A stretch of DNA of 63,917 nt, the filler included. It is 5 parts of 5 records of this genome, joined end to end, with 100 filler letters (N's around TTAATTAATTAA, not from the genome) between each part and the next. Parts side by side here need not be neighbours in the genome. Positions count along the whole stretch, not along the records: positions 1 to 26,843 come from DRR723986_5221; 4 more parts are not named here. One strand, 5' to 3'. Shown piece after piece: positions 2,992 to 58,738 of the stretch. The notes under the pieces were generated by a model, which saw nothing but the letters and a program-made list of their open reading frames with translations, was not told the DNA's origin and did no database searches. Both the position numbers and the translations under genes were made by a program. Positions within the stretch are counted from its first letter, which is position 1. The number at the start of each line of letters is the position of its first letter.

Positions 2992-3165
2992 AGCTCGCCC
3001 ACGCGCACTGTTTTTACCTTTCGCGGCTCAAATTATTTTTGCTTATTGATCGCCGACGTAGAGCGAATTATGACTAAAATATTGCATGCCCTATTGCATC
3101 AGCTTGAGAATCATCTCAAGGATCAATTTCTATCCAACGCCTCCATCCCGGCATCGCGAGCAAAA

Positions 3166-7276: not shown

Positions 7277-9739
7277 ATGGCAAACAAACGAATCCGACGC
7301 TCAAATCCGGTCCGAGAACTTCCAACCCGCGAATTACGCTGGACCTGCCCCAACTCCAAATTCAAATTCACTTCCACCAAGACACTTGACACCCTCAAAG
7401 AAATCGTCGGCCAGCCGCGCGCCGTGGAATCGATTCAGCTGGGCGCCAAACTCTTCTCGCCCGGCTACAACATCTTCGTCTCGGGCCTCTCAGGTACCGG
7501 CCGCCTGACAACGGTCAAAAAGCTGCTGCAGTCCGTTCGCAGCACTAAAAACTTCACGTTTGACTACTGCTACGTTTACAACTTCAAGAATGCAGATCAG
7601 CCAACGCTGCTGAAATTCAACCGCGGCATGGGCAAAGCTTTCTGCAACGCCATGAGTGAAACCATCTCCTTCCTGCGCAGCCGCATTCCGCAGCTGTTTG
7701 AAGAAGAAGGTTTCCAAAAGACGCGCCGCTCCCTGGTAATCCGCTTTCAGCAAAAGGAAAAACAAGTTCTCTCCGAGTTTGACGCCAAACTGCGCCCCAA
7801 AGGTTTTTTCCTGACGCAGTCTGAAAACGAAGACGGCGTGATCCAGTACGAACTGCTCTTCAATATTAAAGATGAGAACTACAGCATTGAAGATCTGCGT
7901 GAATTGGTCTCCAAGGAAATCATTACCGAAGCGCAGTCCAAAAAAATCAATGCGGCCTATCAGCACTATGCTGAGGAGTTCTCCGACATCGCCCGCGAAC
8001 GCATACGGATTGTGCAGGAGTTCCAGCGCGAACTCAAAGAACACGACCGCCTGGCGGCAACACTGATCGTGAAGTCTTCCATCGATGACATGCGCAGCAA
8101 TTTCTCCGAGGAAGAAGCGAGCGTCCTAAAACATCTGGACATTGTCTATAATCATGTGCTGGACAACCTGGCGGCTTTCCATCCGGATCACAATCTGATG
8201 ATGCCGATCCCGACTGATAGCGACCGCGGTGAGGAAGACCCTTTTGATGTCTATCGCGTCAACGTTGTGATGGATAATACGGACACCGAAGGTGGACCAA
8301 TTGTCATCGAAACCAACCCGACGCTCACCAACCTGTTTGGCACAATCGAACGCAAGTTTGACCGGCGCGGTTTCTGGAAAACCGACTTCATGCATATCAA
8401 GGGTGGCTCCCTGCTGAAAGCCGACGGCGGTTACCTGATTCTCAACGCATTGGATATGCTCGGTGAGCAGGGTGTATGGAAAGCGCTAAAGCGAGTCCTG
8501 CTCCACAGAAAACTGCAAATTCAGGCGTCCGACAGCTACTTCCAGGTTTCACAAATTGCTGTTAAGCCAGAGCCGATTGATATAAATGTCAAAATCATCA
8601 TGATCGGTGATGAAGACATATATCGCCTGCTCTATTTTGAAGAAGAAGACTTCCGCAAAATGTTTAAGATCAATGCCAACTTCGATTACGAAGCGGAGTT
8701 GAGCGATGCGATGATCCAAAACTACGCCTCCTTAACACATAAGATTTGTGAAGATGAGGGCCTGCGGCACTTTGGTAAAAGTGGGATGGCGGCGCTGATT
8801 GAATTCGGCGTGGCACATGCCGGAACCCGCGGACACATCAGCCTGCGGTTTAGCGACGTGGCCGACGTAATTCGCGAAGCTTCGTATTATGCACGTAAAG
8901 CCAGCGCAAAGCTCGTGGCACGTGCACATGTTGAACAGGCTCTTGTCCAACGTAAATGGCGCGACAATCTGCTCGATGAAAAGCTGCACAATGCAATTAT
9001 CGACGGCACATTTTTGATTGACACCAAAGGTGAACGCCTCGGCCAGATAAATGGCCTCTCAGTCTACAGCACAGGTCTTGTGTCTTTTGGTAAACCTATT
9101 CGGATTACATCCAGTGTCGGTGTCGGCTCCGCTGGAATTGTTAACATTGAGCGCGAAGTCGAATTGAGTGGCAGCAGTCACGACAAAGGCATCCTGATTT
9201 TAAGCGGCTTCCTGCGCGAGCGTTTTGCTACAAGTGCGCCAATTGCGCTCTCCGCCTCAATTGCTTTTGAGCAGTCCTACGATGAAATTGACGGTGACAG
9301 CGCCTCTTCGACTGAGATTTACGCCGTCCTTTCCAGCCTGGCGGACATCCCAATTCGTCAGTACATCGCCGTAACCGGATCGGTTAACCAAAAGGGTGAC
9401 ATCCAGCCAATTGGTGGTGTTAACGAAAAGATTGAAGGCTTCTTTCAGGTATGTGAAGCGCGGGGCCTCAACGGTAATCACGGCGTCATCATCCCCGAAC
9501 AGAACATCAAGAACCTCATGCTTCCGCCCGAAGTCATTCAGGCTGTTAAAGACAAGAAGTTCCACATCTGGGCAGTTTCGAGCATTGAACAAGGCATCGA
9601 ACTGTTAACCGGTGTTCCGGCCGGCACACCCAAAGACATCGAAACGTTTAATCCCGATACTATTTACGGCCGTGTAGCCCAGCGCCTGGAAGACTATCGC
9701 CAGGCAATGAAAGAACACGGCGGCGACGACACGGAATAA
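7277..9739 (+). CDS. Lon-like protease (LonC/AAA_32 + Lon_C type)
   Basis: IVGQPRA, GQINGLSV, DGDSASS catalytic Ser, TGSVNQKG, GGVNEKIEGF catalytic Lys. Confidence 0.9.
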   Translation: MANKRIRRSNPVRELPTRELRWTCPNSKFKFTSTKTLDTLKEIVGQPRAVESIQLGAKLFSPGYNIFVSGLSGTGRLTTVKKLLQSVRSTKNFTFDYCYVYNFKNADQPTLLKFNRGMGKAFCNAMSETISFLRSRIPQLFEEEGFQKTRRSLVIRFQQKEKQVLSEFDAKLRPKGFFLTQSENEDGVIQYELLFNIKDENYSIEDLRELVSKEIITEAQSKKINAAYQHYAEEFSDIARERIRIVQEFQRELKEHDRLAATLIVKSSIDDMRSNFSEEEASVLKHLDIVYNHVLDNLAAFHPDHNLMMPIPTDSDRGEEDPFDVYRVNVVMDNTDTEGGPIVIETNPTLTNLFGTIERKFDRRGFWKTDFMHIKGGSLLKADGGYLILNALDMLGEQGVWKALKRVLLHRKLQIQASDSYFQVSQIAVKPEPIDINVKIIMIGDEDIYRLLYFEEEDFRKMFKINANFDYEAELSDAMIQNYASLTHKICEDEGLRHFGKSGMAALIEFGVAHAGTRGHISLRFSDVADVIREASYYARKASAKLVARAHVEQALVQRKWRDNLLDEKLHNAIIDGTFLIDTKGERLGQINGLSVYSTGLVSFGKPIRITSSVGVGSAGIVNIEREVELSGSSHDKGILILSGFLRERFATSAPIALSASIAFEQSYDEIDGDSASSTEIYAVLSSLADIPIRQYIAVTGSVNQKGDIQPIGGVNEKIEGFFQVCEARGLNGNHGVIIPEQNIKNLMLPPEVIQAVKDKKFHIWAVSSIEQGIELLTGVPAGTPKDIETFNPDTIYGRVAQRLEDYRQAMKEHGGDDTE

Positions 9740-9824: not shown

Positions 9825-10493
9825 ATGGCACGCAGCATTCAAATAGCGCCTTCCCTCCTCTCCGCCGACTTCGCCAACCTGGAACGCGACGTTAAACGTT
9901 GTGAAGCCGGCGGCGCTGACATGATGCATGTTGACGTCATGGATGGACACTTTGTACCGAACATTACAATTGGTCCGTTGGTAGTTGCCGCACTGCGCCC
10001 TGTCACAAATTTACCGCTCGACGTGCACCTGATGATCTCCGAGCCGGATAGATACATCACACAATTTGCCGAGGCCGGTGCCGATAATATTTCGGTACAT
10101 GTTGAGGCAAGCACACACCTGCACCGCAGCCTGAGTTTGATTCGCGAATCCGGCAAACGCGCCGGCGCAGTGTTAAACCCCGTCACACCTTTAAATACCG
10201 TCTTTGACGCCGCCGAATACTGCGACTTCATTTTGTTAATGTCCGTCAACCCCGGCTTCGGCGGCCAGTCCTTCATCTCTTCTTTTTTGCGGCGTGCAAG
10301 TGAGTTAAGGACCTTCCTGGACAACAATAATCTGCAACATGTTGACATCCAGGTGGACGGTGGTGTTAAAATCGACAACGTTGCCGAAGTTGTTAACTCC
10401 GGTGCAAACCTGATCGTCAGCGGCTCCGGAATCTTCAGCGGCAACATCGAGGACAATATCCGCACTATGCGTCAGCGTGCCGGCGGCGCATAG
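9825..10493 (+). CDS. rpe: ribulose-phosphate 3-epimerase
   Basis: IAPSLLSADF, HVDVMDGHFVPNITIG, MSVNPGFGGQ, VDGG. Confidence 0.97.
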   Translation: MARSIQIAPSLLSADFANLERDVKRCEAGGADMMHVDVMDGHFVPNITIGPLVVAALRPVTNLPLDVHLMISEPDRYITQFAEAGADNISVHVEASTHLHRSLSLIRESGKRAGAVLNPVTPLNTVFDAAEYCDFILLMSVNPGFGGQSFISSFLRRASELRTFLDNNNLQHVDIQVDGGVKIDNVAEVVNSGANLIVSGSGIFSGNIEDNIRTMRQRAGGA

Positions 10494-13273: not shown

Positions 13274-16200
13274 ATGCCACTTCATCGCAGCCTGTTAGGA
13301 CTTGCTATCGTTCTCATGAGCCTGTGCTGCATGCAGCAAATCAGCTATGCGCAGGTTGTGCAGGACTCACTTGTGCGCGATAACCGCGGCAAAGAGTTCT
13401 ACGTGACGTTCATGCCTAACATCCATAACAATCCGCCTGAACTTGAAGACTCGCTCTATCTGTTTTTTAGCGCCGACAGAGTCACGAACGTCACAGTTAA
13501 TTACCACAGCATGGTAAATGCCGGAACGGAAAACGTCTTTCGTGATTACTCCCAGAGTTTTACCGTCAACGCAAATCAGGTCTACACCTTTTCGCTGCCC
13601 TACAAACAACGCTTCAGCAACTTCCCGACGGAATATTTTGAACTGCCGGGCTATCGCGAAAATGCGGAAGTCCGGCCCGACGTTATCTCCGTCAACGAAG
13701 ATATCGTGCCGCTCTCATTCCACATCGAAGCCGACGAAGAAATTGCGGTCTACGGCCTGAATCGCGCGCGGACTACCAGCGATGCCTTCATGGCCCTGCC
13801 GGTAGACGTTCTGGGGACCAACTACTTTGTACTCTCATATAATACACATGACTTTAGAGTTGGCATTACAACACCCTCGCAGTTTGCAATTGTGGCTACC
13901 GAAGATGAGACCGAAGTTGAGTTTACACCTTCGGCGCCCACTTTCAAAAATGGCAGAGACAGGCAGCTCATTCAGTTGAACGCAGGTGATGTTTACCTGG
14001 TACATGCCGACCTGTTTGACGCCTCTCAAACCGACCAAATCCTGGACGGCAATTCCCACGATTTAAGCGGCACAAACATCGTCAGTGATAAACCGATTGC
14101 AGTTTTTGCGGGGCACCAGCGGGCTATGATTCCGCATCTTGGCACCGAAACTTTTAACTCGCGGGACCACCTGGTGCAGCAAATGATGCCGCTGAGCACC
14201 TGGGGCACACAGGCCATCATCGTTCCATTTGTCGACTCGCCCGATGAGTCGACCGAACCAAATAACGACCTGTTCCGCGTTGTAGCTGCGCTCGACGGCA
14301 CAACCGTCAACATCGCCGGAACGCAAACGGTGACGCTCAATGCCGGCGAAATCTACGAAGGTTTCATTGGCCGCGAAGCATTTTTGATCGACGCAGACGC
14401 GCCAATCATGGTTGCTGAGTATCGCCATTCGATCACGGTCCGCAACCCTGAAAACGAAAATCCACAGCTGCTGCAGGCCGACCCTTTTATGCTGCTGATT
14501 CCGCCTGTGGAACAGTTTCTTGACGAATACCTAACGATTAATGCACAGTCCAGCCAGAGAGTCGGCAATATTGAGGTTATCCGGAACGAACTCGTCTACG
14601 AAACCCAGTACATTACACTCGTAATGCCCACGGCCAACCAAAACAGTATTATCGTAGAGCCGCCGCCGCTCTCGCCTTACAACTGGACCCCGGTACCGGG
14701 CACGGAATATTCCTTCACAACCGTCCGCGTCAATGACGGTGTGCACCAGATTGCCGCCGATACGACCGTCGGTGTCTACGTCTACGGCTACGGCGCCGCC
14801 GATTCTTATGGTTATCCTGGTGGCGTTCGTTTTGAGAAAATTTTTGGCCCCGTCATCGATGCCGAAGACGATTGTGCCAGAGTTGACGGTTTTGTAGCCG
14901 ATACCAGCAGTTTTGACAAACCGATTGTCTCCGTCGAAGTCCCCCAAGACCGCATCGTCAATGTTGATATCCGCTTTGACCCGCCCACAACCCCGCGTGA
15001 CACGGTTGTATTCGAGGCCCAGCTACGCAATCCCTATGAGGATGGTGAGTTCTATATTCTGGCTAAGGACGCGCTACGCCTGGAAGTTGAAGGGCTCTAC
15101 CGCCTGCCGGGTTTCACCGTCCACGTGGATGCCAGCATTCGCGATGATGCTACTGTTTCAGAAGTTGACTCCGTCAGTATCGGCCGCGAAAAGTGCTACA
15201 CGGCCACGCTGACCAATTACGGACGCTTTCCACAAAACATCGATGCCCTGCAGTTCCGTTCAGCCTCCAGCCCGTTTACCTTCGCCCCGGGCAGCCCGCA
15301 GACTCCATTTGAAATTCTGCCGGGTGAATCCATCGAAATTGGCTTCTGTTTTGTTGCCGACGCCGCCGGCGAGTTTAACGACACACTCGAGATTGTAGGT
15401 GACTGCATACCGCGTGCCGTTATAGATCTGAGTTGGGTAACCGATATTGATTCACAGGATCCGTCCATCATTGGTGCAGATGATCTTTGCCTCGACCCAT
15501 TTTCTCTGTTAGTAGAGGATCGGCATGCATTTGCTTCGGGAATTGCTTCCATCGAAGTCATTGAAGCCGTCAATACCGATGTCAGGTTCACCGAAGATGA
15601 ACTTCCAGACGCCGCCAGTATTGACGTCCGCGTCCGCGACCGCCGCCTGGATGCGATTTACCACGTTGCTGTAACTGACCAGCAAGGCAACACGAGCATC
15701 TTTATTGACACGATTCCTGGTTTCACTCTGGCATTGATAGAGCCGCAAAACGGTTTCCTCGATTTTGGCAGCTTGTCACTCGGCAGTATAGAGTGCACGG
15801 AAATTGCCGTGCAGAACTTTGGTTCGCGCCCACTGGAATTTGACCTCCTGCAAATGCTGGGAAATGTTAACTTCTCCCTGCCATATTCGCAGTATCCTAT
15901 CGTGCTGGCCCCCAATGAAACGCGCGAGTTGACTCTCTGTTTCCATCCGCGTATCGCCGGTGATTTGATGGACACGCTTCTGTTCCCCTTCAACTGTATC
16001 AACCTGCCGCTGCAAATGGCGGGTGCCAGTATTGCTCCGCGTTTTTCGGGAACTGCCAACTGCGACTTTGTCCTCACAGGCACAGTGTCTGAATTGGACG
16101 AATCGGGTATTCGCAGCGGCCTGGTTAAAGCAGCCTACCCCAATCCCACGGGTGAACGCAGTGTGATTGATATCGCCCTGGACGAAGCCCAGCAAGTCAC

Positions 16201-16372
16201 CGTTCGTGTGGTGCACATGTCCGGCCGCGAAGTCATCCGTTCGCAGCAACTTCTGCCGGCGGGCCACATCTCCGTTGAGCTGGATCTAACGGAAATGGCC
16301 GCAGGCATGTACTATTACCAAATCCAGTCGCGCGACGTCAACCATGTGGACGCGCTCATCATTCAACGTTAA
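13274..16372 (+). CDS. IgGFc-binding N-terminal domain protein with Ig-like repeats and T9SS C-terminal sorting domain
   Basis: Signal peptide; RGKEFYVTF, SDAFMALPVDVLGTNY, RDHLVQQM, DPFM, YGYGAADSYGYPGG; C-terminal AYPNP...GMYYYQI. Confidence 0.82.
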   Translation: MPLHRSLLGLAIVLMSLCCMQQISYAQVVQDSLVRDNRGKEFYVTFMPNIHNNPPELEDSLYLFFSADRVTNVTVNYHSMVNAGTENVFRDYSQSFTVNANQVYTFSLPYKQRFSNFPTEYFELPGYRENAEVRPDVISVNEDIVPLSFHIEADEEIAVYGLNRARTTSDAFMALPVDVLGTNYFVLSYNTHDFRVGITTPSQFAIVATEDETEVEFTPSAPTFKNGRDRQLIQLNAGDVYLVHADLFDASQTDQILDGNSHDLSGTNIVSDKPIAVFAGHQRAMIPHLGTETFNSRDHLVQQMMPLSTWGTQAIIVPFVDSPDESTEPNNDLFRVVAALDGTTVNIAGTQTVTLNAGEIYEGFIGREAFLIDADAPIMVAEYRHSITVRNPENENPQLLQADPFMLLIPPVEQFLDEYLTINAQSSQRVGNIEVIRNELVYETQYITLVMPTANQNSIIVEPPPLSPYNWTPVPGTEYSFTTVRVNDGVHQIAADTTVGVYVYGYGAADSYGYPGGVRFEKIFGPVIDAEDDCARVDGFVADTSSFDKPIVSVEVPQDRIVNVDIRFDPPTTPRDTVVFEAQLRNPYEDGEFYILAKDALRLEVEGLYRLPGFTVHVDASIRDDATVSEVDSVSIGREKCYTATLTNYGRFPQNIDALQFRSASSPFTFAPGSPQTPFEILPGESIEIGFCFVADAAGEFNDTLEIVGDCIPRAVIDLSWVTDIDSQDPSIIGADDLCLDPFSLLVEDRHAFASGIASIEVIEAVNTDVRFTEDELPDAASIDVRVRDRRLDAIYHVAVTDQQGNTSIFIDTIPGFTLALIEPQNGFLDFGSLSLGSIECTEIAVQNFGSRPLEFDLLQMLGNVNFSLPYSQYPIVLAPNETRELTLCFHPRIAGDLMDTLLFPFNCINLPLQMAGASIAPRFSGTANCDFVLTGTVSELDESGIRSGLVKAAYPNPTGERSVIDIALDEAQQVTVRVVHMSGREVIRSQQLLPAGHISVELDLTEMAAGMYYYQIQSRDVNHVDALIIQR

Positions 16373-16422
16373 GCGTCTGCGGGGGCCAAAAATCCCCGAC
16401 TGATTCATGCGCATTTTTAGCC

Positions 16423-16461
16423 AAAAGCGGCGGAGCAATCATGCTCCGCCGCTTTTGTTTT
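16423..16461 (+). terminator. intrinsic, probably bidirectional, terminator
   Basis: AAAA-GCGGCGGAGCA-ATCA-TGCTCCGCCGC-TTTTGTTTT. Confidence 0.85.
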
Positions 16462-16689
16462 ATTCCATTTTTCGGACTGCCCCAGTAGCAGCAGACTGCT
16501 GCAGACTGCTGCCGGGCTACGGCCCCGAATCAAACACACCACATTTTGCCGGGTTCAATCATTTTCGTAATATCTACGATGCCACAATAATCAGCATTTA
16601 TTTTCAAATGTTGAGAAGCTACTCCATTCGACTGCAAAAGTTGAGCAAGGGTAGCCCACGGACACCGCACGCTTCCGGGAGTAGAGTTA

Positions 16690-19600
16690 ATGCCACTTGC
16701 AAACAAGAATCGGCGCGTACTGCGCATTTTTAGTCTAACAATCTTAACCTTTGCGGCTGGCTGTGTAGCGTTTTATTTTATCTTTTTCACAAATAAACGC
16801 AACGAAGTCATTGAACGTAATTTCAGGAGGCTGAATGCAATTGCGCTGCAAGTAGAAAATCGGCTGAGTACAATTAACACGATCATCGGCAATGCCCATA
16901 AGACCCGTGCAGCCGCCAAGACCGGCACTGATGAGATAAAATATTGGCAAGGCATCGCCAAAGGGATTCCGCACCTGAATCAGTCCCGCGAGCGCAAAGC
17001 CAGGCCGCACTCTGTGGGTACGGGTACTCCAGACGACGACTCACCGCCCAGCCCGTACCCGCAGCTACTCAGAATATCAATTAGCCCCAAAGCATTTACG
17101 TGGATCGTTCCCTCTGCTGCCGCAGCAGAATCTGATTCATGCACCGAGTTAAACCTTGACTGGCAAGGCGCTCTACGCGAGACAATAGGTGCATCCAATT
17201 TTGACAATGTTTACCTGGCTGCTGCAGATGGACGAGTGGCCTTCCAGCTGCATCGCCGTCACGGCTCACTCAGAAACCTGGGGAATCTGCAGCTCTTTGA
17301 CGAGCGCGACAAAACCGTCGGATTTGACAGCGTTGCAAACTATGGCGGACTCTTTAGTGCCAAGTTCCATGGCACAAATCACGTTCTATTTGCCCAGCCA
17401 CTCCTGCTGCCTGCAATTGAAGATATCACGACAAAACAGCACTGGACACTCATAGCAGATGTTAAAAATCAGAAATTTGTCAACGAGTCACTACGGCTGC
17501 CTACACCGGTGATACTTACCTTCATTGGCTTAGGAGTAGTTTTACTTACAATTTGGCCACTCTTAAACATTTTGGCCTCAGGCCGCCATACGCGCATCCG
17601 GCGGCTGGACATAATATTTATGGGGCTCTCTGCCACCGTCGGCACGGCCCTTGCGGCCTTTTTCGTAACCGACGTGTACTTCGTAACCGACAACCGCCGC
17701 ACTTATGATTTACAGCTGCATGAACTGGCAAATAGAGTCGACAGCAACTTCCGCTCAGAGGTTTATTCAGCCGTACAACAGCTTAATTTCTTCAAAGACA
17801 ATCGCCCGGAAATGCTCGGCGCAAATTCATCAGGAAGTGCGCCGCAGATTGAACCAGTCTCGGCCTACTACTTAAACAGGGAGTCGTCGTCTTACGTAAA
17901 AACGACGCATAACATTAGCAGCGGGAACGACCTGGCGTACTTTGAATATCGCACTGAGAAAATCGCTGACCCTAACGGCAATATCGAGCAGAAAACCCTT
18001 TGTGAGAAAAATCATGGATGGTACTATCCATTCTTTGACCGCGTAATTCTGGTTGATAGCAGCGGCACAATTCAGTTGAAGATTTCACCTGGGAACGAGT
18101 CAATTGGATTGCCAAATCTTAGTGACCGTGCCTACTTCAAGGCAATTAAAAACCAAATACCATGGCGAATCCCCAGGTCAGACAGTGCCAACAGAAATGA
18201 AACCTTTGAAGTGGTCATAAGCCCGCATATTTCGTGGGTCAGTGGTGCTCACGAAACCACGATAGCAGTCCCATTTCTCCCGGCAGGCAGCAATGCACCG
18301 TGGATAGCAGCGATGGACGTCACAACACTTCACTCTGTAGATGATATAGTCCTGCCGCGCGGCTTTAACCTCGCAATTGTAGATCAGGAAGGCAAAGTAA
18401 AATACCACACAGTATCGAACCGGCGCGCCGTCGAGAACCTCTTAACAGAGTGTTCGGGCAACGGCCGCCTGGCAACCGCAATTGCGGGCCGGCGTGCGGA
18501 CTGGATGACTTGTTCCTATTGGGGAGCAAATCATCGCTTCTACACTAAACCGATTCCAGGCACCGAATGGAGTATTGCTGTCTTTTATGATGAAGACGTA
18601 TGGCTGCACAGCTTAAATTCTGAACTGCTAATGGTCGCCGGAGGTTTATACGTCCTGAACCTCCTGATACTATTGCTCGCTATTGCAATTATGTTATCAA
18701 CCGGGGGCATAAAATTGGACTGGCTGTGGCCCAGCCTGGCCAACCATCGATATTACAAACGCTTAATTTGGCAGATCATTCTGTTTGTGTTGTTTTATAT
18801 CACGGTCATGGTCAACGACTTTAACTTTGACCACGTCTTGATTAGTGCGTTATTTCTGCCAATATTTTTTTCATTGGTCACGTACTTTTCGCTTAAGCGC
18901 CAGCGTGCATTTAACCTTACGGTCGGTTTTACCTATCTCGCTCTCATTGGTTTTGGGCCACTGCTTGCCTGCACGGACTTCATCAGCTTGGGTGGGGCAG
19001 CACAAGCATCCACCTCAAATATTGGAAGTGCTATCTATGCACTGCGCTATTTTGGCTGGTTCCTTGTAATTGTGACCGTCCAGCAAGTCTTGCAGCGGAC
19101 GGGACTATTACAGAGGCAGCGGAACATAAAATCACTGACTGATTGGCGCGTAAAAATGTTAATAATGGGCATATTCCTTCAGGGCATCGCGCTCATAGTC
19201 CACTCGCACAATGAGTCAATACACACCTTGCTGGAAGTCGGCCTGCACATCTTCATTTCCTGTTTAACAATTTTTGCGCTGTTCAACTTCTCGGAAAAAC
19301 GCGACTATTTCTCGAACCACGAGTACATCGAACACCTGCATTCGCTGCGCTTACAAAAGGCTGAGAGCTCGGTCAACATCAAATCATTCAGGCGCACATA
19401 CAAGACCTTCATTTTTTGCGTAGTCACAGTCGTGGGTGTAGCACCGTCCTTTGCCTATTTCTTTCTGACGCAAAGTGTGTTGTTTGACATAAACCTAAAG
19501 GACGTCCAAAAAACTATGGCTGACGACATTCAGGAACGGCACGCGACATTTCAGAAGCGCTACGCCAAACCTGGAATGTCACAAGTAGAATCACAGCGCC

Positions 19601-21363
19601 TTACAATGGCAAAAAACGACGACAAGTGGCTTTACTCTTCGGCATTCTTTAACACGGAATTGACTGTTAACAAAATCAATCAGAACAATCTGGTCAAACC
19701 TGCTCCCAACCTTGCAGACGACTCTGGCAATAGCACAACATCACATGAGGATACTTTCTGGCTGAGCACAATTTTTCAGTGGTTGTACCCGGCTGACACT
19801 ACTGCTGCAGGCCAGCCACGGCATGCAGCGCCATTTGGCAATATCCTCCCCAGAATTGTCACCAAAATGCAATTCCAGACGGACGAGAATCATCAAGCGC
19901 CGCGCATGGTAGATACAATGGCCAATGACAGTTCATGGAGAACCGTCTTCAAGTCCAAATCCGAACGACACTTAATCGTGCGCGACAAGAGTGGACGGAA
20001 TGAAATCATATTAAAGTCACACTCGCACAGAATCCTGTTTGACCCCAAGAAATTTCGCTCCGAAGAATATTCGCTATTTGCACTGTTGATTCTCCTGACA
20101 GCATTAGTCGTCGGCGGGTTAATTTGGGCCATAGACAAGTTTGCGCGGCAGGTTTTTCTAATAAACTTTTCCAATCCGCGGCGTGCAAACAGTGTGCTGC
20201 AATTTGACTCTGATGGCCCACCGGTTTACTTGCTGGTGCCACCCCTCGTACCCATCCGCAATCTGTTGGACAAGTCTATCGCAGTAAAAAAACAGGGACT
20301 CAATCTTAGCGAAAGCACACTCCGCCCTATTATCATTGATACGGACGAATTGCTGCAATTGGCTAAACGTGACTTCAGCCTCAGCCACGAACGTGACGTC
20401 TTTATTGTTGACGCCAGGGGGCTGACACCTTATCAGTCCGACGGCAATGTTAAACTCTTGCATGCCGTTAACAAATTGGATCACATCGGCAATCATTCTC
20501 TTATCGTAATCGGCACCGTCGCCCCGGCCAACGCCTTTCTACCCAATGACTTCCTGATCAGTCCTAAAGATATCAGTGAAGGCACACCGCTGGACACGGA
20601 GCAGGACGAAACAATACCGACAAGGGCAGACGACAGTCAGCATCCAATGCAAACAACATTGAATGCCACCGAGTACTCGGCCTGGAAAATCGAATACTAT
20701 GATGACGGCACCAGTACTTCAGAATATCTCGTCTCACTCATGAGCACATGTATACAGCAATACATCAGAAGCAGTAAAACATCCAGCCCACCTGCACTCT
20801 CGTTCTGCGAACACATTTGCCGTGAGTTTTACGCTTTTCCATGGCTGCGCGACCGCGGAATGGAGTTGGCCTTACGCTATGGTGGCTCCTGGAGTGGTCA
20901 TGACAAGGTCGCAGTCTCAAAAATCATGGCTACGGCGGCCGAGCCCTTTTACATCGCTGCCTGGCACTCCTGCTCCAGCGCCGAAAAGATCATCCTTGCT
21001 AACCTGGCACGTGAGGGCGCACTCAACGGCAAAGATCCTCGTGACATTCATCGCCTGCTGGACCGCAACATGATCCAGCTAACGCCCAAACCAAGTGTGA
21101 TCAACCACGGCTTCCGCAACTATTTACATCGTGACGATATCCAGGCTGAAGCCACCAGACTAATCGATGTGACCGCACAGAGTACCTGGGAAAATATGCG
21201 AACACCAGTCATCATCATTGTCGTCCTGATTACCGCATTTTTTATGATAACACAGCATGATGTGCTCGATACTACAACAGCGGTCATCTCCTCAATTGCC
21301 GTGATTCTCCCTGGGGTCCTGCGCGCTTTCGAATCCTTTAAGAGCTCGGCTGCGCAGGAATAA
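16690..21363 (+). CDS. giant polytopic Cache-domain membrane protein, paralog A (1557 aa)
   Basis: dCache-like motifs FDRVILVDSSG, LSDRAYF, LAIVDQEGKVKYH, PIPGTEWSIAVFY; about 14 hydrophobic segments by eye; no HK, MCP or GGDEF motifs. Confidence 0.75.
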   Translation: MPLANKNRRVLRIFSLTILTFAAGCVAFYFIFFTNKRNEVIERNFRRLNAIALQVENRLSTINTIIGNAHKTRAAAKTGTDEIKYWQGIAKGIPHLNQSRERKARPHSVGTGTPDDDSPPSPYPQLLRISISPKAFTWIVPSAAAAESDSCTELNLDWQGALRETIGASNFDNVYLAAADGRVAFQLHRRHGSLRNLGNLQLFDERDKTVGFDSVANYGGLFSAKFHGTNHVLFAQPLLLPAIEDITTKQHWTLIADVKNQKFVNESLRLPTPVILTFIGLGVVLLTIWPLLNILASGRHTRIRRLDIIFMGLSATVGTALAAFFVTDVYFVTDNRRTYDLQLHELANRVDSNFRSEVYSAVQQLNFFKDNRPEMLGANSSGSAPQIEPVSAYYLNRESSSYVKTTHNISSGNDLAYFEYRTEKIADPNGNIEQKTLCEKNHGWYYPFFDRVILVDSSGTIQLKISPGNESIGLPNLSDRAYFKAIKNQIPWRIPRSDSANRNETFEVVISPHISWVSGAHETTIAVPFLPAGSNAPWIAAMDVTTLHSVDDIVLPRGFNLAIVDQEGKVKYHTVSNRRAVENLLTECSGNGRLATAIAGRRADWMTCSYWGANHRFYTKPIPGTEWSIAVFYDEDVWLHSLNSELLMVAGGLYVLNLLILLLAIAIMLSTGGIKLDWLWPSLANHRYYKRLIWQIILFVLFYITVMVNDFNFDHVLISALFLPIFFSLVTYFSLKRQRAFNLTVGFTYLALIGFGPLLACTDFISLGGAAQASTSNIGSAIYALRYFGWFLVIVTVQQVLQRTGLLQRQRNIKSLTDWRVKMLIMGIFLQGIALIVHSHNESIHTLLEVGLHIFISCLTIFALFNFSEKRDYFSNHEYIEHLHSLRLQKAESSVNIKSFRRTYKTFIFCVVTVVGVAPSFAYFFLTQSVLFDINLKDVQKTMADDIQERHATFQKRYAKPGMSQVESQRLTMAKNDDKWLYSSAFFNTELTVNKINQNNLVKPAPNLADDSGNSTTSHEDTFWLSTIFQWLYPADTTAAGQPRHAAPFGNILPRIVTKMQFQTDENHQAPRMVDTMANDSSWRTVFKSKSERHLIVRDKSGRNEIILKSHSHRILFDPKKFRSEEYSLFALLILLTALVVGGLIWAIDKFARQVFLINFSNPRRANSVLQFDSDGPPVYLLVPPLVPIRNLLDKSIAVKKQGLNLSESTLRPIIIDTDELLQLAKRDFSLSHERDVFIVDARGLTPYQSDGNVKLLHAVNKLDHIGNHSLIVIGTVAPANAFLPNDFLISPKDISEGTPLDTEQDETIPTRADDSQHPMQTTLNATEYSAWKIEYYDDGTSTSEYLVSLMSTCIQQYIRSSKTSSPPALSFCEHICREFYAFPWLRDRGMELALRYGGSWSGHDKVAVSKIMATAAEPFYIAAWHSCSSAEKIILANLAREGALNGKDPRDIHRLLDRNMIQLTPKPSVINHGFRNYLHRDDIQAEATRLIDVTAQSTWENMRTPVIIIVVLITAFFMITQHDVLDTTTAVISSIAVILPGVLRAFESFKSSAAQE

Positions 21364-21656
21364 GATGTTTTGGAATTCAAACCCAATGACAAACAAAATA
21401 TCAAGAAAAATGGCAGGAGATACAGGCCATTCCTGCCCAATTATACTGAATTCACGACGGCCCCAAAGTTCCGCCCACGTAATCCGCGTACCTGGCCCGG
21501 CGGTTCAAAAGCGCCCAATAATTGAATTGGCAACACAAATTTTGTAATATTCAGATCAAGTCAATACCAAGGATCATACTTCGCTGCATTCATTTCCTTC
21601 AATGTCTGTGACGTGTACTCAAACAATTCACTCCACTATAACAGGTTCTGCGCCCC

Positions 21657-24600
21657 ATGCCCGCACCAGCAAACCCGCGCCGCAAACTCCGCTTCCTCTC
21701 TTTCCTGACCATTGCCGTCATTGCTCTCGGAGCAGCGTACTACTTCTCATTTTATACGCAAAAACGCGAATATGTGATTGACCGCAACTTCCGTCGCCTG
21801 AGCGTCATCTCTGAACAAATCGAATCGCGGATGGATGGCCTCTATCGTATCCTGATCAACACAGCCGAAAACACAGAGTACGACCCGCAACGCAACGACA
21901 GCCTTGACAAATTGGTTGATACAGCACTCGACAAAGTAGAAGACTTCCGCTCGGAACGCAATCCGAGACAGCAATTGCCGCTCCCGGTCGAAAAATACAT
22001 TGTTGATAGCGTTCTCGTCGAATCCGTTAAATCTATCGAAGCCGGACGCAGCAATAAGAAACGAGCCAGGATTGACGCCCAGCAGCGCAAGACGACCGAA
22101 GAGTTAAGTAAACAAGTCCTGGAACTGGAACAGACGACCATCGACAATCCAGACGTTCCCGTACAGGAACGCACAAACAATGAGCTGGACGAAGTCCAGG
22201 GTGCCCTCAGTAAAGCCGTCGCTGCCATCGACTATTTAAACTTTAAGGAACGTATCGCCGGTGCAATTGGCATAGTTCCCTTTGCAACGCTAGAATATGC
22301 AGATACCGTTGCTTCAACTCGGCAGACTGATACAACACAACACAACATTGGGGCCACACAGTCGACCAGTCGCATAGAAAAAGTTGAGCTAGAGCGCAAC
22401 ATCCTCTACTTAACATGCCGCAATGTGCCCGCCCTTGGCCCCGACCTCATCATTCGCGTCAGCGTAGATATTAATGAAATGATCAGCCAGCAGATAAAAG
22501 ATATTGTGTTTGACAATGTCTACCTGGCCGAAGCCGGTGGTGCCGTCATCTACCAGTTCGCAAAACAACGCGGCAATGTTCGCGCGTTTAACAAAGTCCG
22601 CTCACTGGCAGATACAGAGACAGAGCTGGAATTTAACACACTCGGGCAGTCCGGCGGCCTGTTTACTGCCGACCTTGCCGGCGAAACCCAAATTCTGTTC
22701 GCACGCCCACTTGCATTACAACTAAACATTCGCGACTCACTCGGTTTCAGCTGGGTTCTTGTTGCTACTGTACCCTCAACCAAACTACTCAGTGAAAGCC
22801 TGGCCCTTCCAACAAACTCAATCTTGATATTCAGTTTGCTTGGAGCCTTATTCGTGTTGGCATGGCCACTGTTAAACATCGTCTTTGCCGGTACATTTTC
22901 GCGCCTGCGTAAAATCGATATAGCCTTCCTGGGGCTCTCGGCATTTGTTGCGTCCGCATTGATTGCCTTGGGTCTGGTAGATTTGTACCAAATGACAAAT
23001 ATGCGCCGCGTTTATGACGAGCAGTTGGAGCATACCGCCAGAATCGCTCACAAAAATGTTCGGCAGGAGCTACGCCAGGCGCACAACCAGCTGCGTTTCC
23101 TGGCTGACTCACTTAAACCACGCCTGAAAGACCTGAGTGGCGCCTGGACCTACACACCACTGATTATTGAAACGCAACGCCCTCTCGACTCCGTTCGATC
23201 CGAAAAACTCTTCCTTGAACGGCTATTGCCACGCGCCTCAAACCTTCTTAATTTCCGGCGCGGAGACACAGTCCCATCAGGCAAAAACATCGGATGGCAC
23301 TACCTAAACTTTGACCGCGTGTTTTTCGCCGACGAAAGTGGAGACATCCGCGCCAAACTGGCTGTCGGCTCCGCCGCTACACCTTTCCTTAACATTGGCC
23401 GGCGCGACTACTACAGGCAGGTTGAACGCCGTGACCTCCTCACGCTGCATTATCCGTCTGAGGCCAACCCCGCTAAAGATTCCGGTCGTTCAGCGGACGA
23501 CGGCGACGTAATCGCAATGGCACTTAGCCAGCATCATTCATGGGCCAGTGGCGCCTATGAAACAACCATGGCGATTCCAATTGATTCCGACCCGGCATCC
23601 ACCGGCGGCTGGATGGCGGGCATGGATATTTCTACATTCGCAAGTTTTAGGGATCCCCTCCTTCCCCCCACGTTTAACCTGGTGCTTGTTGATGAGGATG
23701 GTAACGTTCTATATCACACCCGCCCCGAACGCAGTGGTTTTGAAAACTTTCTGGTAGAATGTGACAACAATCCGCGCCTGGCTTCAACACTTGCGGGGCG
23801 CCGCAGCGACTGGATGAGCAGTACGTATTGGGGTGAGGACCGCCGCATCTACACACTTCCCCTGCACGAAACGCCCTGGACGATCATTTGTTATTACAAT
23901 GAAGAAGCATTAGTCGACGGCAGTAATGTTGGTTTGTTAATAAGCACTATCAGCTTTTACGGTGTTAACCTCCTGCTGCTGATGGCTCTGATTCTGATGG
24001 GACTATCCAGCAGTAAAGTTCAATTGGACTGGCTCTGGCCCAGTTTTATTGACTATCAAACATATCGGAAGTTAAGCTACATTTACCTCGGCTTCCTGGT
24101 GTTTTATATTGTCGCTTTATCTCAGGAACTGCGATTTGATCATGTCTTGATTGCGGCTTTGTTACTGCCCGTCTTCTTTGTATTTGTGACCTATTTTTCG
24201 CTGAAGCGGCAGCAAGAACTCAATATCAGAATCATTCTGATTTTGATTCCCTTTGTTGGTTTCTATCCTGTGTTTGCGGCACTTCAGCTGTTTGGGCACA
24301 TGCATGAATTTGCGATTGGCCTGCGCTTTGCAGCAAGCTTTTTCCTCTTGTTTGGTTTGCCGGCAAGTATTGTAGGCATCCGCCACTGGTATAAACGTAA
24401 ACGTGCTCCGCGCCGCGATTGGCGCTACGAATTATTTGTCTCGGCCACCATCTATCACCTACTTGTATTTAGCATTCAGACGGCCAGTTTTGCCTGGGGC
24501 GGCCGTGTTACCGAAGCCCTCTATCACCTGGTGTTAATTGCGCTGACGGCTTTTGCTCTGCATCAGTTTCAGTCCAAGCGCAATTACATGACGCGCGATC

Positions 24601-26564
24601 AATATCTGAATGAGCTTTACAGGCACCGTTCAGGGCGTGTTGCGGGCGCACCAAGTGCCCGTGTTTTCCGCCGAACTTATCGCGTCTTTCTGATCATTCT
24701 GATGCTCTTAACCGGCATACTTCCAATGATTGCCTACTTTACTTTGGCAAATCAGGCCGTGTTTAACTTGCTTCTAAAACATTCACAGAAGGAGATGGCC
24801 GAGCACATCATTCAACGTGAAAGTGAAATAGGTGAGTCGATTGCCGGCCTCACAACAACAGAATCTGAGTTTCTGCGCAAGCGGCTACAGCACGACCCGC
24901 GCGGCATGTACCATTCTTCGTTCTTTAACACAGAGATTTCACACTTCGTTGAACACGAATCTCTCGACAGTTCAGTCCAGCTTCACGAGCACGGTGTCAA
25001 CCCGTTTGGTGTGATCCTGCCACGGCTCTTAAACAAACTGCAGTTTGCCCCCGAGCGCGGTTTGCCTACCAGGCAAGTAATTGGCACACAAGCGCAGGAC
25101 AGCGTCTGGCACACTGGTGAGATTGATTCCAGCGACCGGGCCGTTCTGTTGCATCGCCGATTAAACGGTGGCCCCAGCATTATGGTTGCCAGCGATGCTT
25201 CTACGCCGGGCATGGCCGTAGCTGCCACGCGCCCCAAGCAGCTCGCAATTTTCCTGACCCTGCTGATGGCTTCTCTCGTTTGCACTGCCATTCTTTACTG
25301 GGCTACATACAAGTTTGGCGAGCAGGTTCTGTTAACACGTTTTGCGAACCCGCGCAGCAATATGGACGAGGATATTACAATTCCCTTAAACGCGCCCCTG
25401 TTTGTGGTTTGCCGTCCGCTGACAACTCCGGATGCCATCCTGCGACGTCTACAATTACCTGCGGCTCAGCAGTGTGATGATATCGAATTTGACCACGAAC
25501 AGAATGATTTCCCCGAAAGCGACTTCAATGATGATTGGCGCCAGGACGCAATTCACATTTGTGTTAACAGCACTGACGACCTGAATGACGTCCCCGCAGC
25601 CTCGACCGGCAAAACGCCTGTCTTTTTAATAGAAGCGTTTAATCTCGACCCCGAGTATTCGGCTGCAAACATTAAATTCCTGATCCAGGTTAACAAACTA
25701 CGCGCTTCCAGTAATGGCATTGTAGTTGTCATGGGCAGCATCGACCCCGCCGTTGCTTTCACGGACCACTCCTTTTCCAGCTTGGCCGACGGTGCGCAAG
25801 CAGCTCCAATACAGGAGGGAGAAGGAGTCAGGCGTAATTCTGCTGAGGCCGCAACAATCGACAACATCGTTGCCGCACGTGCATTCGCCAACTGGGAAAC
25901 CGTGTTTTATACGGAGATGCACGACTCTCAACTCTTCCGTGCCGAACTTGAAGTTATGGCCGACGAAGCCGGTGTTTCAGGTCCCGAAGTTCAGGCATGT
26001 ATTAACATACTGGCATACGAGTGTTACATGACGGATTGGCTGCGACATAAAGGCAAACGCATCTTCGAACAATTCTGCCGCGAGCACGAGGGTTTTGACG
26101 AGGCGGCTTTGCGCAGACAGATTTTGTTAAGTGCCGAACCGCTATATCAAGCCATATGGCACACCTGCTCGCGTGGTGAGAAGGTCCTGCTGGCCAACCT
26201 TTCACGCGAAGGAATCCTGAACGGCAAAAACACCCTCGGCGTCCGCAGTCTGCTTAACAAACAGCTGATGATGCTCGTCCCCGATCCACGCGTTATTAAC
26301 GATAGCTTCCGCGAATACATTCGGCGCGACGACATTCAGGCGGAGGCCAATGCTCTGGCTGAAGGTACAGCACGCAGCGCCTGGGAAAACCTGCGTTTAC
26401 CGTTAATTGTTCTACTGGTGGCCGGCGGTGCCTTCCTGATGGTCACACAGCATGAGATTGTTGACATGACAACAGCAATTATTTCGGCCGTTACGGTTCT
26501 TTTGCCTGGAATTCTGAAGGCTTTGGACTTCTTCCGGCAGGGGCGTTCGGCGGCGGGCGGTTAA
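21657..26564 (+). CDS. giant polytopic Cache-domain membrane protein, paralog B (1635 aa)
   Basis: Collinear with paralog A: RNFRRL, FDNVYLA, WPLLNI, FDRVFFADESG, LVLVDEDGNVLYH, LDWLWPS, VTYFSLKRQ, FFNTE, LANLSREGILNGK, WENLRLP. Confidence 0.75.
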   Translation: MPAPANPRRKLRFLSFLTIAVIALGAAYYFSFYTQKREYVIDRNFRRLSVISEQIESRMDGLYRILINTAENTEYDPQRNDSLDKLVDTALDKVEDFRSERNPRQQLPLPVEKYIVDSVLVESVKSIEAGRSNKKRARIDAQQRKTTEELSKQVLELEQTTIDNPDVPVQERTNNELDEVQGALSKAVAAIDYLNFKERIAGAIGIVPFATLEYADTVASTRQTDTTQHNIGATQSTSRIEKVELERNILYLTCRNVPALGPDLIIRVSVDINEMISQQIKDIVFDNVYLAEAGGAVIYQFAKQRGNVRAFNKVRSLADTETELEFNTLGQSGGLFTADLAGETQILFARPLALQLNIRDSLGFSWVLVATVPSTKLLSESLALPTNSILIFSLLGALFVLAWPLLNIVFAGTFSRLRKIDIAFLGLSAFVASALIALGLVDLYQMTNMRRVYDEQLEHTARIAHKNVRQELRQAHNQLRFLADSLKPRLKDLSGAWTYTPLIIETQRPLDSVRSEKLFLERLLPRASNLLNFRRGDTVPSGKNIGWHYLNFDRVFFADESGDIRAKLAVGSAATPFLNIGRRDYYRQVERRDLLTLHYPSEANPAKDSGRSADDGDVIAMALSQHHSWASGAYETTMAIPIDSDPASTGGWMAGMDISTFASFRDPLLPPTFNLVLVDEDGNVLYHTRPERSGFENFLVECDNNPRLASTLAGRRSDWMSSTYWGEDRRIYTLPLHETPWTIICYYNEEALVDGSNVGLLISTISFYGVNLLLLMALILMGLSSSKVQLDWLWPSFIDYQTYRKLSYIYLGFLVFYIVALSQELRFDHVLIAALLLPVFFVFVTYFSLKRQQELNIRIILILIPFVGFYPVFAALQLFGHMHEFAIGLRFAASFFLLFGLPASIVGIRHWYKRKRAPRRDWRYELFVSATIYHLLVFSIQTASFAWGGRVTEALYHLVLIALTAFALHQFQSKRNYMTRDQYLNELYRHRSGRVAGAPSARVFRRTYRVFLIILMLLTGILPMIAYFTLANQAVFNLLLKHSQKEMAEHIIQRESEIGESIAGLTTTESEFLRKRLQHDPRGMYHSSFFNTEISHFVEHESLDSSVQLHEHGVNPFGVILPRLLNKLQFAPERGLPTRQVIGTQAQDSVWHTGEIDSSDRAVLLHRRLNGGPSIMVASDASTPGMAVAATRPKQLAIFLTLLMASLVCTAILYWATYKFGEQVLLTRFANPRSNMDEDITIPLNAPLFVVCRPLTTPDAILRRLQLPAAQQCDDIEFDHEQNDFPESDFNDDWRQDAIHICVNSTDDLNDVPAASTGKTPVFLIEAFNLDPEYSAANIKFLIQVNKLRASSNGIVVVMGSIDPAVAFTDHSFSSLADGAQAAPIQEGEGVRRNSAEAATIDNIVAARAFANWETVFYTEMHDSQLFRAELEVMADEAGVSGPEVQACINILAYECYMTDWLRHKGKRIFEQFCREHEGFDEAALRRQILLSAEPLYQAIWHTCSRGEKVLLANLSREGILNGKNTLGVRSLLNKQLMMLVPDPRVINDSFREYIRRDDIQAEANALAEGTARSAWENLRLPLIVLLVAGGAFLMVTQHEIVDMTTAIISAVTVLLPGILKALDFFRQGRSAAGG

Positions 26565-26843: not shown

Positions 26844-26943
26844 NNNNNNNNNNNNNNNNNNNNNNNNNNNNNNNNNNNNNNNNNNNNTTAATTAATTAAN
26901 NNNNNNNNNNNNNNNNNNNNNNNNNNNNNNNNNNNNNNNNNNN
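26844..26943. other. artificial contig spacer
   Basis: N44-TTAATTAATTAA-N44, stop codons in all six frames. Confidence 0.98.
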
Positions 26944-27621
26944 GATGATGCTGTCGACCCCCATCTCTTCCAGAAGCAACATGTCGTGGATACGGTTAAC
27001 CGTCCAGGTAGAGACATGCATGTTCCGCCGGTGTGCCGTCTCGACCATACCTTTGGTCAGAATTTTCCAGTTCACACAGAAATATTCACAGCCCAGCCTG
27101 GTGGCCAGGTTCAGCGGCTTGGGAAACTTGCGCTCGGCCACCAGACCGATGCGTATGTTTTTGTCGCGACGGCGGATTTCACGCAGAAACCAGGGGTCGG
27201 ACGAGGTGATAGCCGCCGTCTGGTACAAATCCCGGCGCTGGATGATCTCTGTCAGGCGATTGCACAGGATGTTCAGCCTGTGCCGTGCATCCTTTTTCAC
27301 TTCCAGTTGAAGGTGCTCAATGTCATCAAACTGATCGAGCAGATTCTCCAGCGAGGGAATACCGGTTTTCCGGCACCATGAGCTGGTATTGCGGCGCGCA
27401 TCCATCTCGGCCAGTTCGGCGGCGGTATACTTGCCGACACTGCCTTTCTGGCCGGTGGTGCGGTCCACGGTCAGATCGTGCACCAGTACAGGGATGCCGT
27501 CTTTAGACAGCACCAGATCCAGCTCAAAATGCCGGATACCATGCCGGTGGGCATGGATGAAGCCAGGCATGGTGTTTTCCGGAGCCTCTCCTTTGGCTCC
27601 ACGGTGACCATAAACGATCAT
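26944..27621 (-). CDS. glycerophosphodiester phosphodiesterase, 3' end truncated by contig edge
   Basis: MIVYGHRGA, PENT, ELD, HD, EVK, WTVN, GVDSII; ATG overlaps the upstream stop (ATGA). Confidence 0.9.
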
Positions 27622-34037: not shown

Positions 34038-34137
34038 NNNNNNNNNNNNNNNNNNNNNNNNNNNNNNNNNNNNNNNNNNNNTTAATTAATTAANNNNNNN
34101 NNNNNNNNNNNNNNNNNNNNNNNNNNNNNNNNNNNNN
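34038..34137. other. artificial contig spacer
   Basis: N44-TTAATTAATTAA-N44. Confidence 0.98.
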
Positions 34138-49747: not shown

Positions 49748-49847
49748 NNNNNNNNNNNNNNNNNNNNNNNNNNNNNNNNNNNNNNNNNNNNTTAATTAAT
49801 TAANNNNNNNNNNNNNNNNNNNNNNNNNNNNNNNNNNNNNNNNNNNN
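49748..49847. other. artificial contig spacer
   Basis: N44-TTAATTAATTAA-N44. Confidence 0.98.
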
Positions 49848-58638: not shown

Positions 58639-58738
58639 NNNNNNNNNNNNNNNNNNNNNNNNNNNNNNNNNNNNNNNNNNNNTTAATTAATTAANNNNNN
58701 NNNNNNNNNNNNNNNNNNNNNNNNNNNNNNNNNNNNNN
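58639..58738. other. artificial contig spacer
   Basis: N44-TTAATTAATTAA-N44. Confidence 0.98.

Follow-up and report, generated by a model that had tools for sequence, protein, structure and literature searches.

Tandem Cache-sensor membrane proteins with a STAND-like, P-loop-less tail: probable receptors without a classical output domain

What does a receptor do when Cache sensors stand outside the membrane and none of the usual signaling modules follows inside it? Two very large adjacent genes, called A and B here (P0001 and P0002), raise this question. They were found in a stretch of DNA of 63,917 nucleotides (the window) that consists of five contigs joined end to end, and both lie on the first contig, window positions 1 to 26844. 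An initial annotation, made from the sequence alone, had seen in them giant Cache receptors with no known output domain that would signal through a channel- or transporter-like bundle or through a cytoplasmic tail. The explanation that we favor as a whole, at a probability of roughly 55%, is that A and B are Cache-sensor membrane receptors with a tethered STAND-like pseudo-NTPase switch, which would act by conformation or assembly.

The two open reading frames (ORFs) are adjacent, and their products align end to end in BLASTP, with 31% identity over 1450 collinear positions (E = 0). The motifs on which the initial annotation relied (FDNVYLA..G, FDRV..D.SG, R.Y[FY], SW.SGA.ETT, L..VD..G.V.YH, W.I..[FY]Y, and FRRTY[KR]) are readable in both translations. 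We conclude with high confidence that A and B are tandem paralogs and belong to a large family of polytopic proteins of the inner membrane that has no name yet. Their contig comes from a bacterium with type IX secretion system (T9SS) cargo, related to the metagenome-assembled genome (MAG) behind a locus, L001, at which the pair recurs.

A Kyte-Doolittle scan of A gave 14 transmembrane (TM) segments, at residues 13-31, 274-292, and 308-326, eight within 649-926, and 1130-1148, 1503-1521, and 1529-1547; one of them, 781-799, is weak, with a Kyte-Doolittle score of 1.17. Both A and B are predicted to have 14 TM helices with the N and C termini inside. Six short cytoplasmic loops of A carry 3 to 6 Lys and Arg residues each and its short outside loops carry 0; the totals for A are 30 inside versus 14 outside. 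Because the positive-inside rule is obeyed with the N terminus inside, three domains (D1, D2, and D3) are placed in the periplasm and the long tail in the cytoplasm. Hydropathy and charge counts thus agree with the domain order and the sidedness that had first been read by eye.

An HMMER search with residues 400-1557 of A, with representatives taken at 50% clustering, returned 2666 family members at E ≤ 1e-3, of which 1627 reach ≤ 1e-10 and 239 reach ≤ 1e-30; the majority are 1250-1450 amino acids (aa) in length. Named relatives are entered as "hypothetical protein" or "cache domain-containing protein" and come from Thermoanaerobaculia and Vicinamibacterales MAGs, and the ESM Atlas neighbors of one relative, P0045, are all hypothetical proteins. 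A itself is not in the ESM Atlas. A word-index homolog search and a genome contig search, each with A, gave no match, nor did a metagenome scan for the close subfamily, and no shorter relatives of the P0045 tail turned up when such proteins were looked for. The absence of classical outputs noted for the pair extends to its relatives: in A and B, neither Pfam nor NCBIfam recognized a histidine kinase, MCP, GGDEF/EAL, cyclase, phosphatase (PP2C included), or Ser/Thr kinase domain, and Pfam detected no signaling output domain in 30 relatives or in a further set of 20. Likewise, no response regulator is present among the ORFs scanned on the pair's contig. A and B therefore stand outside the classical receptor families, as they lack an output domain.

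The sole Pfam match in the two proteins is dCache_1 (PF02743) on D2, with 28.4 bits in A and 16.8 bits in B, both under the 45-bit cut-off. Among 30 relatives scanned, dCache_1 is found at E ≤ 0.01 in 20 and over the cut-off in 2; relatives that exceed it are P0030 (63.9 bits), P0013 (45.8), P0054 (48.5), and P0079 (46.7). A profile of 143 family members matched the KinD sensor 4jgo (E 2e-5) and 3lif (E 1.4e-3) in the PDB, with nothing else significant. In hhalign, the C-terminal half of the family D1 matched the membrane-proximal module of D2 (probability 96%, E 3.7e-9, 96 columns), against control values of E 0.33 for D3 versus D2, 0.35 for D3 versus D1, and 0.059 for the tail versus D2. D3 has no Pfam or PDB match either. 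The two Cache folds of the initial annotation are thus kept in unequal form by profile comparison: D2 is probably a double Cache, and D1 is Cache-like, appearing to hold a single Cache/PAS-like module.

Within D2, R480, H573, E582, E587, and Y610 are near invariant in the family. Three of these residues, His573, Glu582, and Glu587, are kept in 139, 141, and 142 of the 143 members and form the motif FHSD..RN..ENFF.E in the membrane-proximal module (window about 18406-18450). Such strictness is unusual for a dCache module that usually does not bind ligand, and the three residues could be a metal-binding or catalytic site.

The initial annotation had held that the tail contains no known output domain. 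No classical output domain is indeed present, but the tail can be assigned: we read it as a P-loop module of NACHT/STAND-like type with a winged-helix-like region behind it. This goes part of the way toward the refutation that the initial annotation had itself set out. A canonical Walker A motif, GPPxSGK[ST], is present in 19 of the 143 aligned relatives, a few residues past the TM helix that enters the cytoplasm, and is absent from 124. In the corresponding columns A reads PPLVP (PPLVPIR) and B reads RPLTT (RPLTTPD), and the motif is missing. After Walker A, the family consensus runs through a Walker-B-like strand, hhhhDHFE, a helix, KL.LLE.L, and a strand, R.VVV.S..DP. At the Walker B site, A keeps the Asp without the second acidic residue (VFIVDA) and B reads FLIEAF. 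P-loop-bearing members have sub-threshold Pfam matches at the same site to AAA, AAA_22, RNA_helicase, nSTAND3, and AAA_16. In A and B, the P-loop-bearing members, and the tails scanned, the Pfam models for NACHT and nSTAND all stay below threshold.

Three tail profiles, built from P-loop-bearing members, from the whole family, and from the family with all P-loop-bearing members removed, were compared by hhalign with eight references built from genomes of the related MAG's phylum: NACHT (27 segments), AAA (30), AAA_16 (28), KAP (16), AAA_22 (4), DnaA (23), ABC (25), and GTPase (25). The P-loop-bearing tail is closest to NACHT (probability 96.5%, E 1e-9), with 88-95 aligned columns that begin at Walker A, take in the "h.LR" strand and Walker B, and end at a TSR-like strand; a yardstick comparison between NACHT and AAA_16 gave 96.4% and E 1.3e-9. 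The paired motifs are iGpPxSGKS, iDLR, ivlDHFE, and VVvvStiDP in the family and iGdpGsGKTTL, yl.LR, llLlDGlDE, and vvvTSR in NACHT. For the whole-family tail, the NACHT match has a probability of 83% (E 8.6e-6) and likewise covers 88-95 columns. The P-loop-less profile still prefers NACHT, at 48% (E 1.8e-4, 90 columns) versus ≤7.5% for the seven other families. By comparison, the best E value was 0.052 in 32 controls (D1, D2, D3, and the TM bundle against the eight references) and 0.03 in 6 reversed-template controls.

Other P-loop families fit less well. The AAA profile matches the P-loop-bearing tail at 94.6% over 56 columns only and the whole-family tail at 5.7%, and the best hit of classical AAA+ (PF00004) is 18.7 bits versus a cut-off of 21.2 (in P0153). 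The KAP NTPase profile (PF07693) reaches 9% with the P-loop-bearing tail, where it covers the P-loop only, and 0.6-0.7% with the other tails. Downstream of the NTPase-like part, the realigned P-loop-bearing profile matches the region that follows the AAA_16 NTPase, over W..CS..EK..L.hLA.G (90.7%), which fits a region resembling the STAND-type winged helix. This region holds W1425, which all 143 members share without exception, and C1428 and E1432, which are near invariant. On these comparisons, we take the tail to derive from a P-loop NTPase of NACHT/STAND-like kind with a dead P-loop in A and B, and A and B are predicted to bind no nucleotide. Because the Walker A loop has decayed in A, in B, and in most of the family, we regard the module as a pseudo-NTPase.

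The state of the P-loop changed repeatedly. On a FastTree phylogeny of the 143 members (1116 columns, with the Walker A columns removed), at least 10 changes are required. One group of 63 rows contains all 19 P-loop-bearing members together with the clade of the window proteins, which comprises 6 rows and has 100% support. The C-terminal TM hairpin, found in 124 of 143 members, is the best conserved part, 84% identical between the B orthologs and 44% between the paralogs, and its turn residues T1521 and Q1522 are kept in 134 and 141 of 143. The winged-helix-like region is the second best conserved part (70% and 44%); the tail linker, D3, and D1 are the least conserved.

The pair is also found together in the related genome. 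At L001, a SpoU methylase, a T9SS cargo protein, the A ortholog, and the B ortholog follow one another in this order, and synteny stops directly after B. When the two genomes are compared domain by domain, the A orthologs share 10-36% identity, whereas the B orthologs share 38-84%. A pattern scan detected a shared element, TTTT(N)GTAATAT (11-12 bases), at two sites in the whole window, both upstream of the pair, where 0.04 would be expected; its single site in L001, at 9875-9885, is 116-126 nucleotides (nt) upstream of the B ortholog. The element suggests common regulation of A and B and may be a shared promoter or operator. As A and B share this element and stay paired in the related genome, they probably serve the same process.

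The mechanism that we consider most likely is the following. Binding of a small ligand to the Cache domains in the periplasm would shift the TM helices, and this shift would alter the conformation or self-association of the membrane-tethered STAND-like module. The module, which lies between two predicted membrane anchors, TM12 on its N-terminal side and the highly conserved TM13-14 hairpin on its C-terminal side, may serve as a nucleotide-independent conformational or oligomerization switch and not as an enzyme. It would signal by assembling or recruiting partners at the membrane, and neither phosphotransfer nor synthesis of a second messenger would be involved. The division of labor between the paralogs is a matter of speculation: A could be a specificity subunit and B a conserved transducer, fitting the faster divergence of A. 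We advance only tentatively the stronger proposal of an undescribed receptor class in which Cache sensors directly drive a membrane-embedded STAND (NLR-like) oligomerization module, in which most lineages would dispense with nucleotide hydrolysis so that ligand alone sets the switch, and of which the window pair would be a heteromer with A for specificity and B for transduction.

Several points weigh against the pseudo-NTPase receptor that we favor. The Cache, STAND, and winged-helix assignments come from sequence profiles only. A and B reach no Pfam cut-off and have no NCBIfam match, and Pfam and PDB sequence-profile searches of the tail with the whole-family, P-loop-bearing, and tail-only profiles gave no significant or consistent match. 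The reference profiles are home-made from one phylum, with an AAA set that is essentially FtsH and an AAA_22 set of only 4 sequences; the NACHT match of the P-loop-less profile stops at 48%, and the whole-family tail matches the AAA_16 winged-helix region at only 9%. No effector domain is visible in A or B. In canonical STANDs the sensor follows the NTPase on its C-terminal side and nucleotide exchange is required, and the analogy may fail because the sensor of A and B is N-terminal and the P-loop is gone. Finally, the tree places A beside the B group and not with its positional ortholog P0004, so that orthology and the account of rates rest on synteny.

How the pair relates to known systems can be stated part by part. 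STAND NTPases of the NACHT clade include bacterial NLR-like proteins, Avs proteins, and animal NLRs, with the MalT type belonging to the wider class. Like these, the family presents in order a strand, Walker A, a helix, an "h.LR" strand, an hhhhD.h(D/E) Walker B, a helix, an hhhhTS/ST strand, a helical region, and a winged-helix-like region, and the profile distance of the P-loop-bearing tail (E 1e-9) equals that between NACHT and AAA_16. Unlike in these, the module forms a loop in the cytoplasm that connects TM helices of a protein with 14 of them, the sensor is an N-terminal periplasmic Cache instead of C-terminal repeats, no effector domain is present, and Walker A is missing in A, B, and 124 of 143 members. 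Without Walker A and with no Pfam threshold reached, A and B fall strictly outside the STAND NTPases. Even so, we take their ancestor to have been STAND-like, and they probably function as a reduced version of such a protein. With Cache receptors (KinD-type kinases, chemoreceptors, and diguanylate cyclases) the family shares a periplasmic dCache flanked by TM helices, as the 4jgo and 3lif matches reflect; it differs in lacking a kinase, MCP, GGDEF/EAL, cyclase, or phosphatase module and in having two Cache-type domains in series with a TM hairpin between them, plus a third domain outside the membrane and another 10 TM helices. KAP P-loop NTPases are membrane-embedded NTPases with TM helices inserted in the NTPase domain. 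They likewise join a P-loop NTPase domain and TM helices in one polypeptide, whereas here the TM helices flank the module and the profile probability is 9% at most.

No conserved partner gene emerges at the family loci. A family ORF is present in 80 of the 82 loci examined; it is single in 79 of them and double only in L001. Their 430 neighboring ORFs fall into 382 BLAST clusters, the largest spanning 4 loci. A Pfam scan covered 88 of 121 immediate neighbors, the 33 left out being short ORFs, ORFs cut by the locus end, or from one duplicate locus; the Pfam content of the 88 is heterogeneous. The tabulation of homologs' neighboring genes that the initial annotation had proposed as a check thus revealed no conserved neighbor across the family loci examined.

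The initial annotation's option of signaling through the bundle amounts to a Cache-gated channel or transporter that has its functional core in the TM bundle and a tail confined to regulation. The large number of TM helices, 14 overall with 8 of them in the bundle, would suit it, as would the prolines P724 and P919 conserved within helices; W680, P681, and Y689, in the loop after TM4, are near invariant in the family as well. However, the number of bundle helices among the 143 members is 4 in 49, 5 in 9, 6 in 74, 7 in 4, 8 in 6, and 12 in 1, the largest common form (8 helices) being that of the window clade, and no charged or polar residue is conserved inside the bundle in the 143-member alignment. 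A variable helix count and the lack of a conserved charge argue against a transporter or channel core. The bundle, moreover, belongs with the less conserved parts when A is compared with B (31%), and the family profile gave no significant match to solved transporters, the best membrane-protein matches having E ≥ 0.036. We therefore disfavor this option and consider it very unlikely. A conflict or defense device is a less remote alternative, yet still an unlikely one. Here, a membrane-embedded STAND-type sensor would use the TM bundle or the C-terminal hairpin as an effector that perturbs the membrane in the style of abortive infection, as in TM-effector NLR-like and Avs proteins. A STAND-like core, a patchy distribution (2 of 151 genomes sampled from the related MAG's phylum), a rapidly diverging paralog A, repeated loss of the P-loop, and a self-contained protein with no conserved partner are all as this explanation would have them. 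Its sensors, on the other hand, are periplasmic Cache domains, and Cache domains bind small extracellular molecules, not cytoplasmic phage proteins; a pseudo-NTPase could not use the nucleotide-driven activation typical of defense STANDs. PADLOC-DB 2.0 gave no match for A, B, P0003, P0030, or P0153, and P0045 matched only mad8 at E 0.015, and the neighbors at family loci are ordinary metabolic or envelope genes, with single PIN and SF1-helicase cases among the 88.

Conservation of the winged-helix-like region raises the question of whether it reads DNA, as in a membrane-tethered one-component transcription regulator of the ToxR/CadC manner that binds DNA upon Cache occupancy. The region is the best conserved soluble part, W1425 is invariant, and the net charge over 64 residues has a family median of +5. 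A and B, however, have a net charge of just +3 and +4 there, the membrane tethers the region from both sides with about 20 residues to TM13, and no Pfam helix-turn-helix family was found in 76 tails, apart from a single RP-C match at E 6e-4. In addition, the winged helix of STAND proteins is part of the switch, not a DNA reader. We regard such a regulator as quite improbable. Least probable, in our estimate, is a non-signaling envelope scaffold, for example an anchoring or assembly factor, tied to the T9SS-secreted surface protein encoded upstream. In each of the two genomes with the pair, the cargo gene immediately precedes it (L001 883-3966 in the related one; 65-67% identical). A strong terminator separates it from A, however, and the two genomes are close relatives (Lon-like proteins 87% identical, SpoU syntenic), so the linkage may be inherited gene order. 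Cargo domains occur in none of the 88 neighbors scanned at other family loci, and the source-named relatives are from Acidobacteriota MAGs, which points to family members mostly without T9SS. Compared with these alternatives, the Cache receptor with a pseudo-NTPase switch remains our preferred reading.

Coordinates of the features discussed are collected in Table 1.

Table 1. Features of the A/B locus, the window, and locus L001. Coordinates refer to the window unless L001 is given; residue numbers are those of the protein named.
Feature	Coordinates	Strand	Basis or remark
Gene A (P0001), 14-TM Cache/STAND-like membrane protein, fast-evolving paralog	16690..21363	+	1557-aa ORF
A D1, residues 35-270, C-terminal half Cache/PAS-like module	16792..17499	+	hhalign
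A TM2-TM3 hairpin, residues 274-326, basic cytoplasmic loop SGRHTRIRRLD	17509..17667	+	kept in 143/143 aligned relatives
A D2, residues 330-645, dCache_1-like, between TM3 and TM4	17677..18624	+	Pfam, profile
A bundle, 8 TM helices (TM4-TM11), residues 649-926	18634..19467	+	hydropathy
A D3, residues 927-1129, periplasmic	19468..20076	+	no TM segment in 143/143
A TM12, residues 1130-1148, enters cytoplasm	20077..20133	+	hydropathy
A tail, residues 1150-1500: NACHT/STAND-like NTPase-derived module, variable linker, winged-helix-like region	20137..21189	+	profile comparison
A residues 1178-1190 (PVYLLVPPLVPIR), strand 1 and Walker A loop site, GxxxxGK[ST] lost	20221..20259	+	alignment
A residues 1237-1242 (VFIVDA), Walker-B-like strand, Asp retained, second acidic residue lost	20398..20415	+	alignment
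A residues 1419-1482, winged-helix-like region, W1425..CS..EK..L.NLA.EG...	20944..21135	+	conservation, profile
A C-terminal TM13-TM14 hairpin, residues 1503-1547, T1521-Q1522 turn	21196..21330	+	most conserved part of protein
Gene B (P0002), collinear paralog, slowly evolving	21657..26564	+	1635-aa ORF
B D2, about residues 444-759, dCache-like	22986..23933	+	BLASTP, Pfam
B tail, residues 1218-1577, STAND-like; PLFVVCRPLTTPD in P-loop place; FLIEAF Walker-B-like	25308..26387	+	alignment
T9SS cargo gene, 1032 aa, IgGFc_binding, HYDIN/ASH-type Ig-like domains, Por_Secre_tail sorting tail	13274-16372	+	directly upstream of pair
Strong terminator-like hairpin, 16 pairs, 10 G-C, then T-run	16422..16457	+	after T9SS cargo gene, before A
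Shared element TTTTCGTAATAT	16562..16573	+	pattern scan; 117-128 nt upstream of A start codon
Shared element TTTTGTAATAT	21540..21550	+	pattern scan; 107-117 nt upstream of B start codon
N-run with TTAATTAATTAA six-frame stop spacer, end of pair's contig	26845..26944	.	sequence
Further TTAATTAATTAA spacers	34082-34093, 49792-49803, 58683-58694		sequence
A positional ortholog P0004	L001 4241-9541		synteny
B ortholog P0005	L001 10001-14947		synteny

The terminator hairpin that follows the cargo gene implies that A is not simply cotranscribed with it. A 108-aa ORF (16407-16733, plus strand) overlapping the first part of A was discarded because it spans the hairpin; it has no Pfam match and is probably not coding. 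Two other genes on the pair's contig, for a LonB/LonC-like AAA protease (7277-9739, plus strand) and a 917-aa DUF4397 protein (2443-5196, plus strand), have no evident link to the pair. Scanning the window for Rfam families and tRNAs brought no match.

Genes past 26844 were rejected as neighbors of the pair, since they are located on other contigs; those just past the spacer are 35-36% identical between the window and the L001 MAG. Pieces 2 and 4 encode proteins found letter for letter in Marinobacter clusters (DAHP synthase, TerB, DusA, and lipoyl synthase), and piece 3 encodes an AMP-binding enzyme identical to a Roseibium/Labrenzia cluster member. An ORF for a HAMP-domain protein at the second spacer (34090-35658, minus strand) is on another contig, probably from a different organism than the pair, and is not part of its signaling context.

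The Cache census by Upadhyay et al. (2016; PMC4822843) describes Cache domains as identified exclusively in proteins with output signaling domains. Its models were built from such proteins, so the family falls outside that census. A search of full-text literature, with subscription journals not covered, found no description of a Cache domain coupled to a STAND or P-loop module. What appears to be new is the joining of a Cache receptor to a STAND switch, both of known kinds. As STAND modules are not a classical bacterial output, A and B would represent a new receptor architecture and not a protein of unknown parts.

Among the extracellular sensors of prokaryotes, none is more common than the Cache domain. 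If the assignments hold, a family of 2666 representatives couples Cache sensing to a STAND/NLR-type switch and so links two major signaling worlds. Its P-loop-intact and P-loop-dead versions, separated by at least 10 changes of state, would provide a natural series for the question of nucleotide-free STAND switching, and thousands of database entries now called "hypothetical" or "cache domain-containing" could gain a domain architecture.

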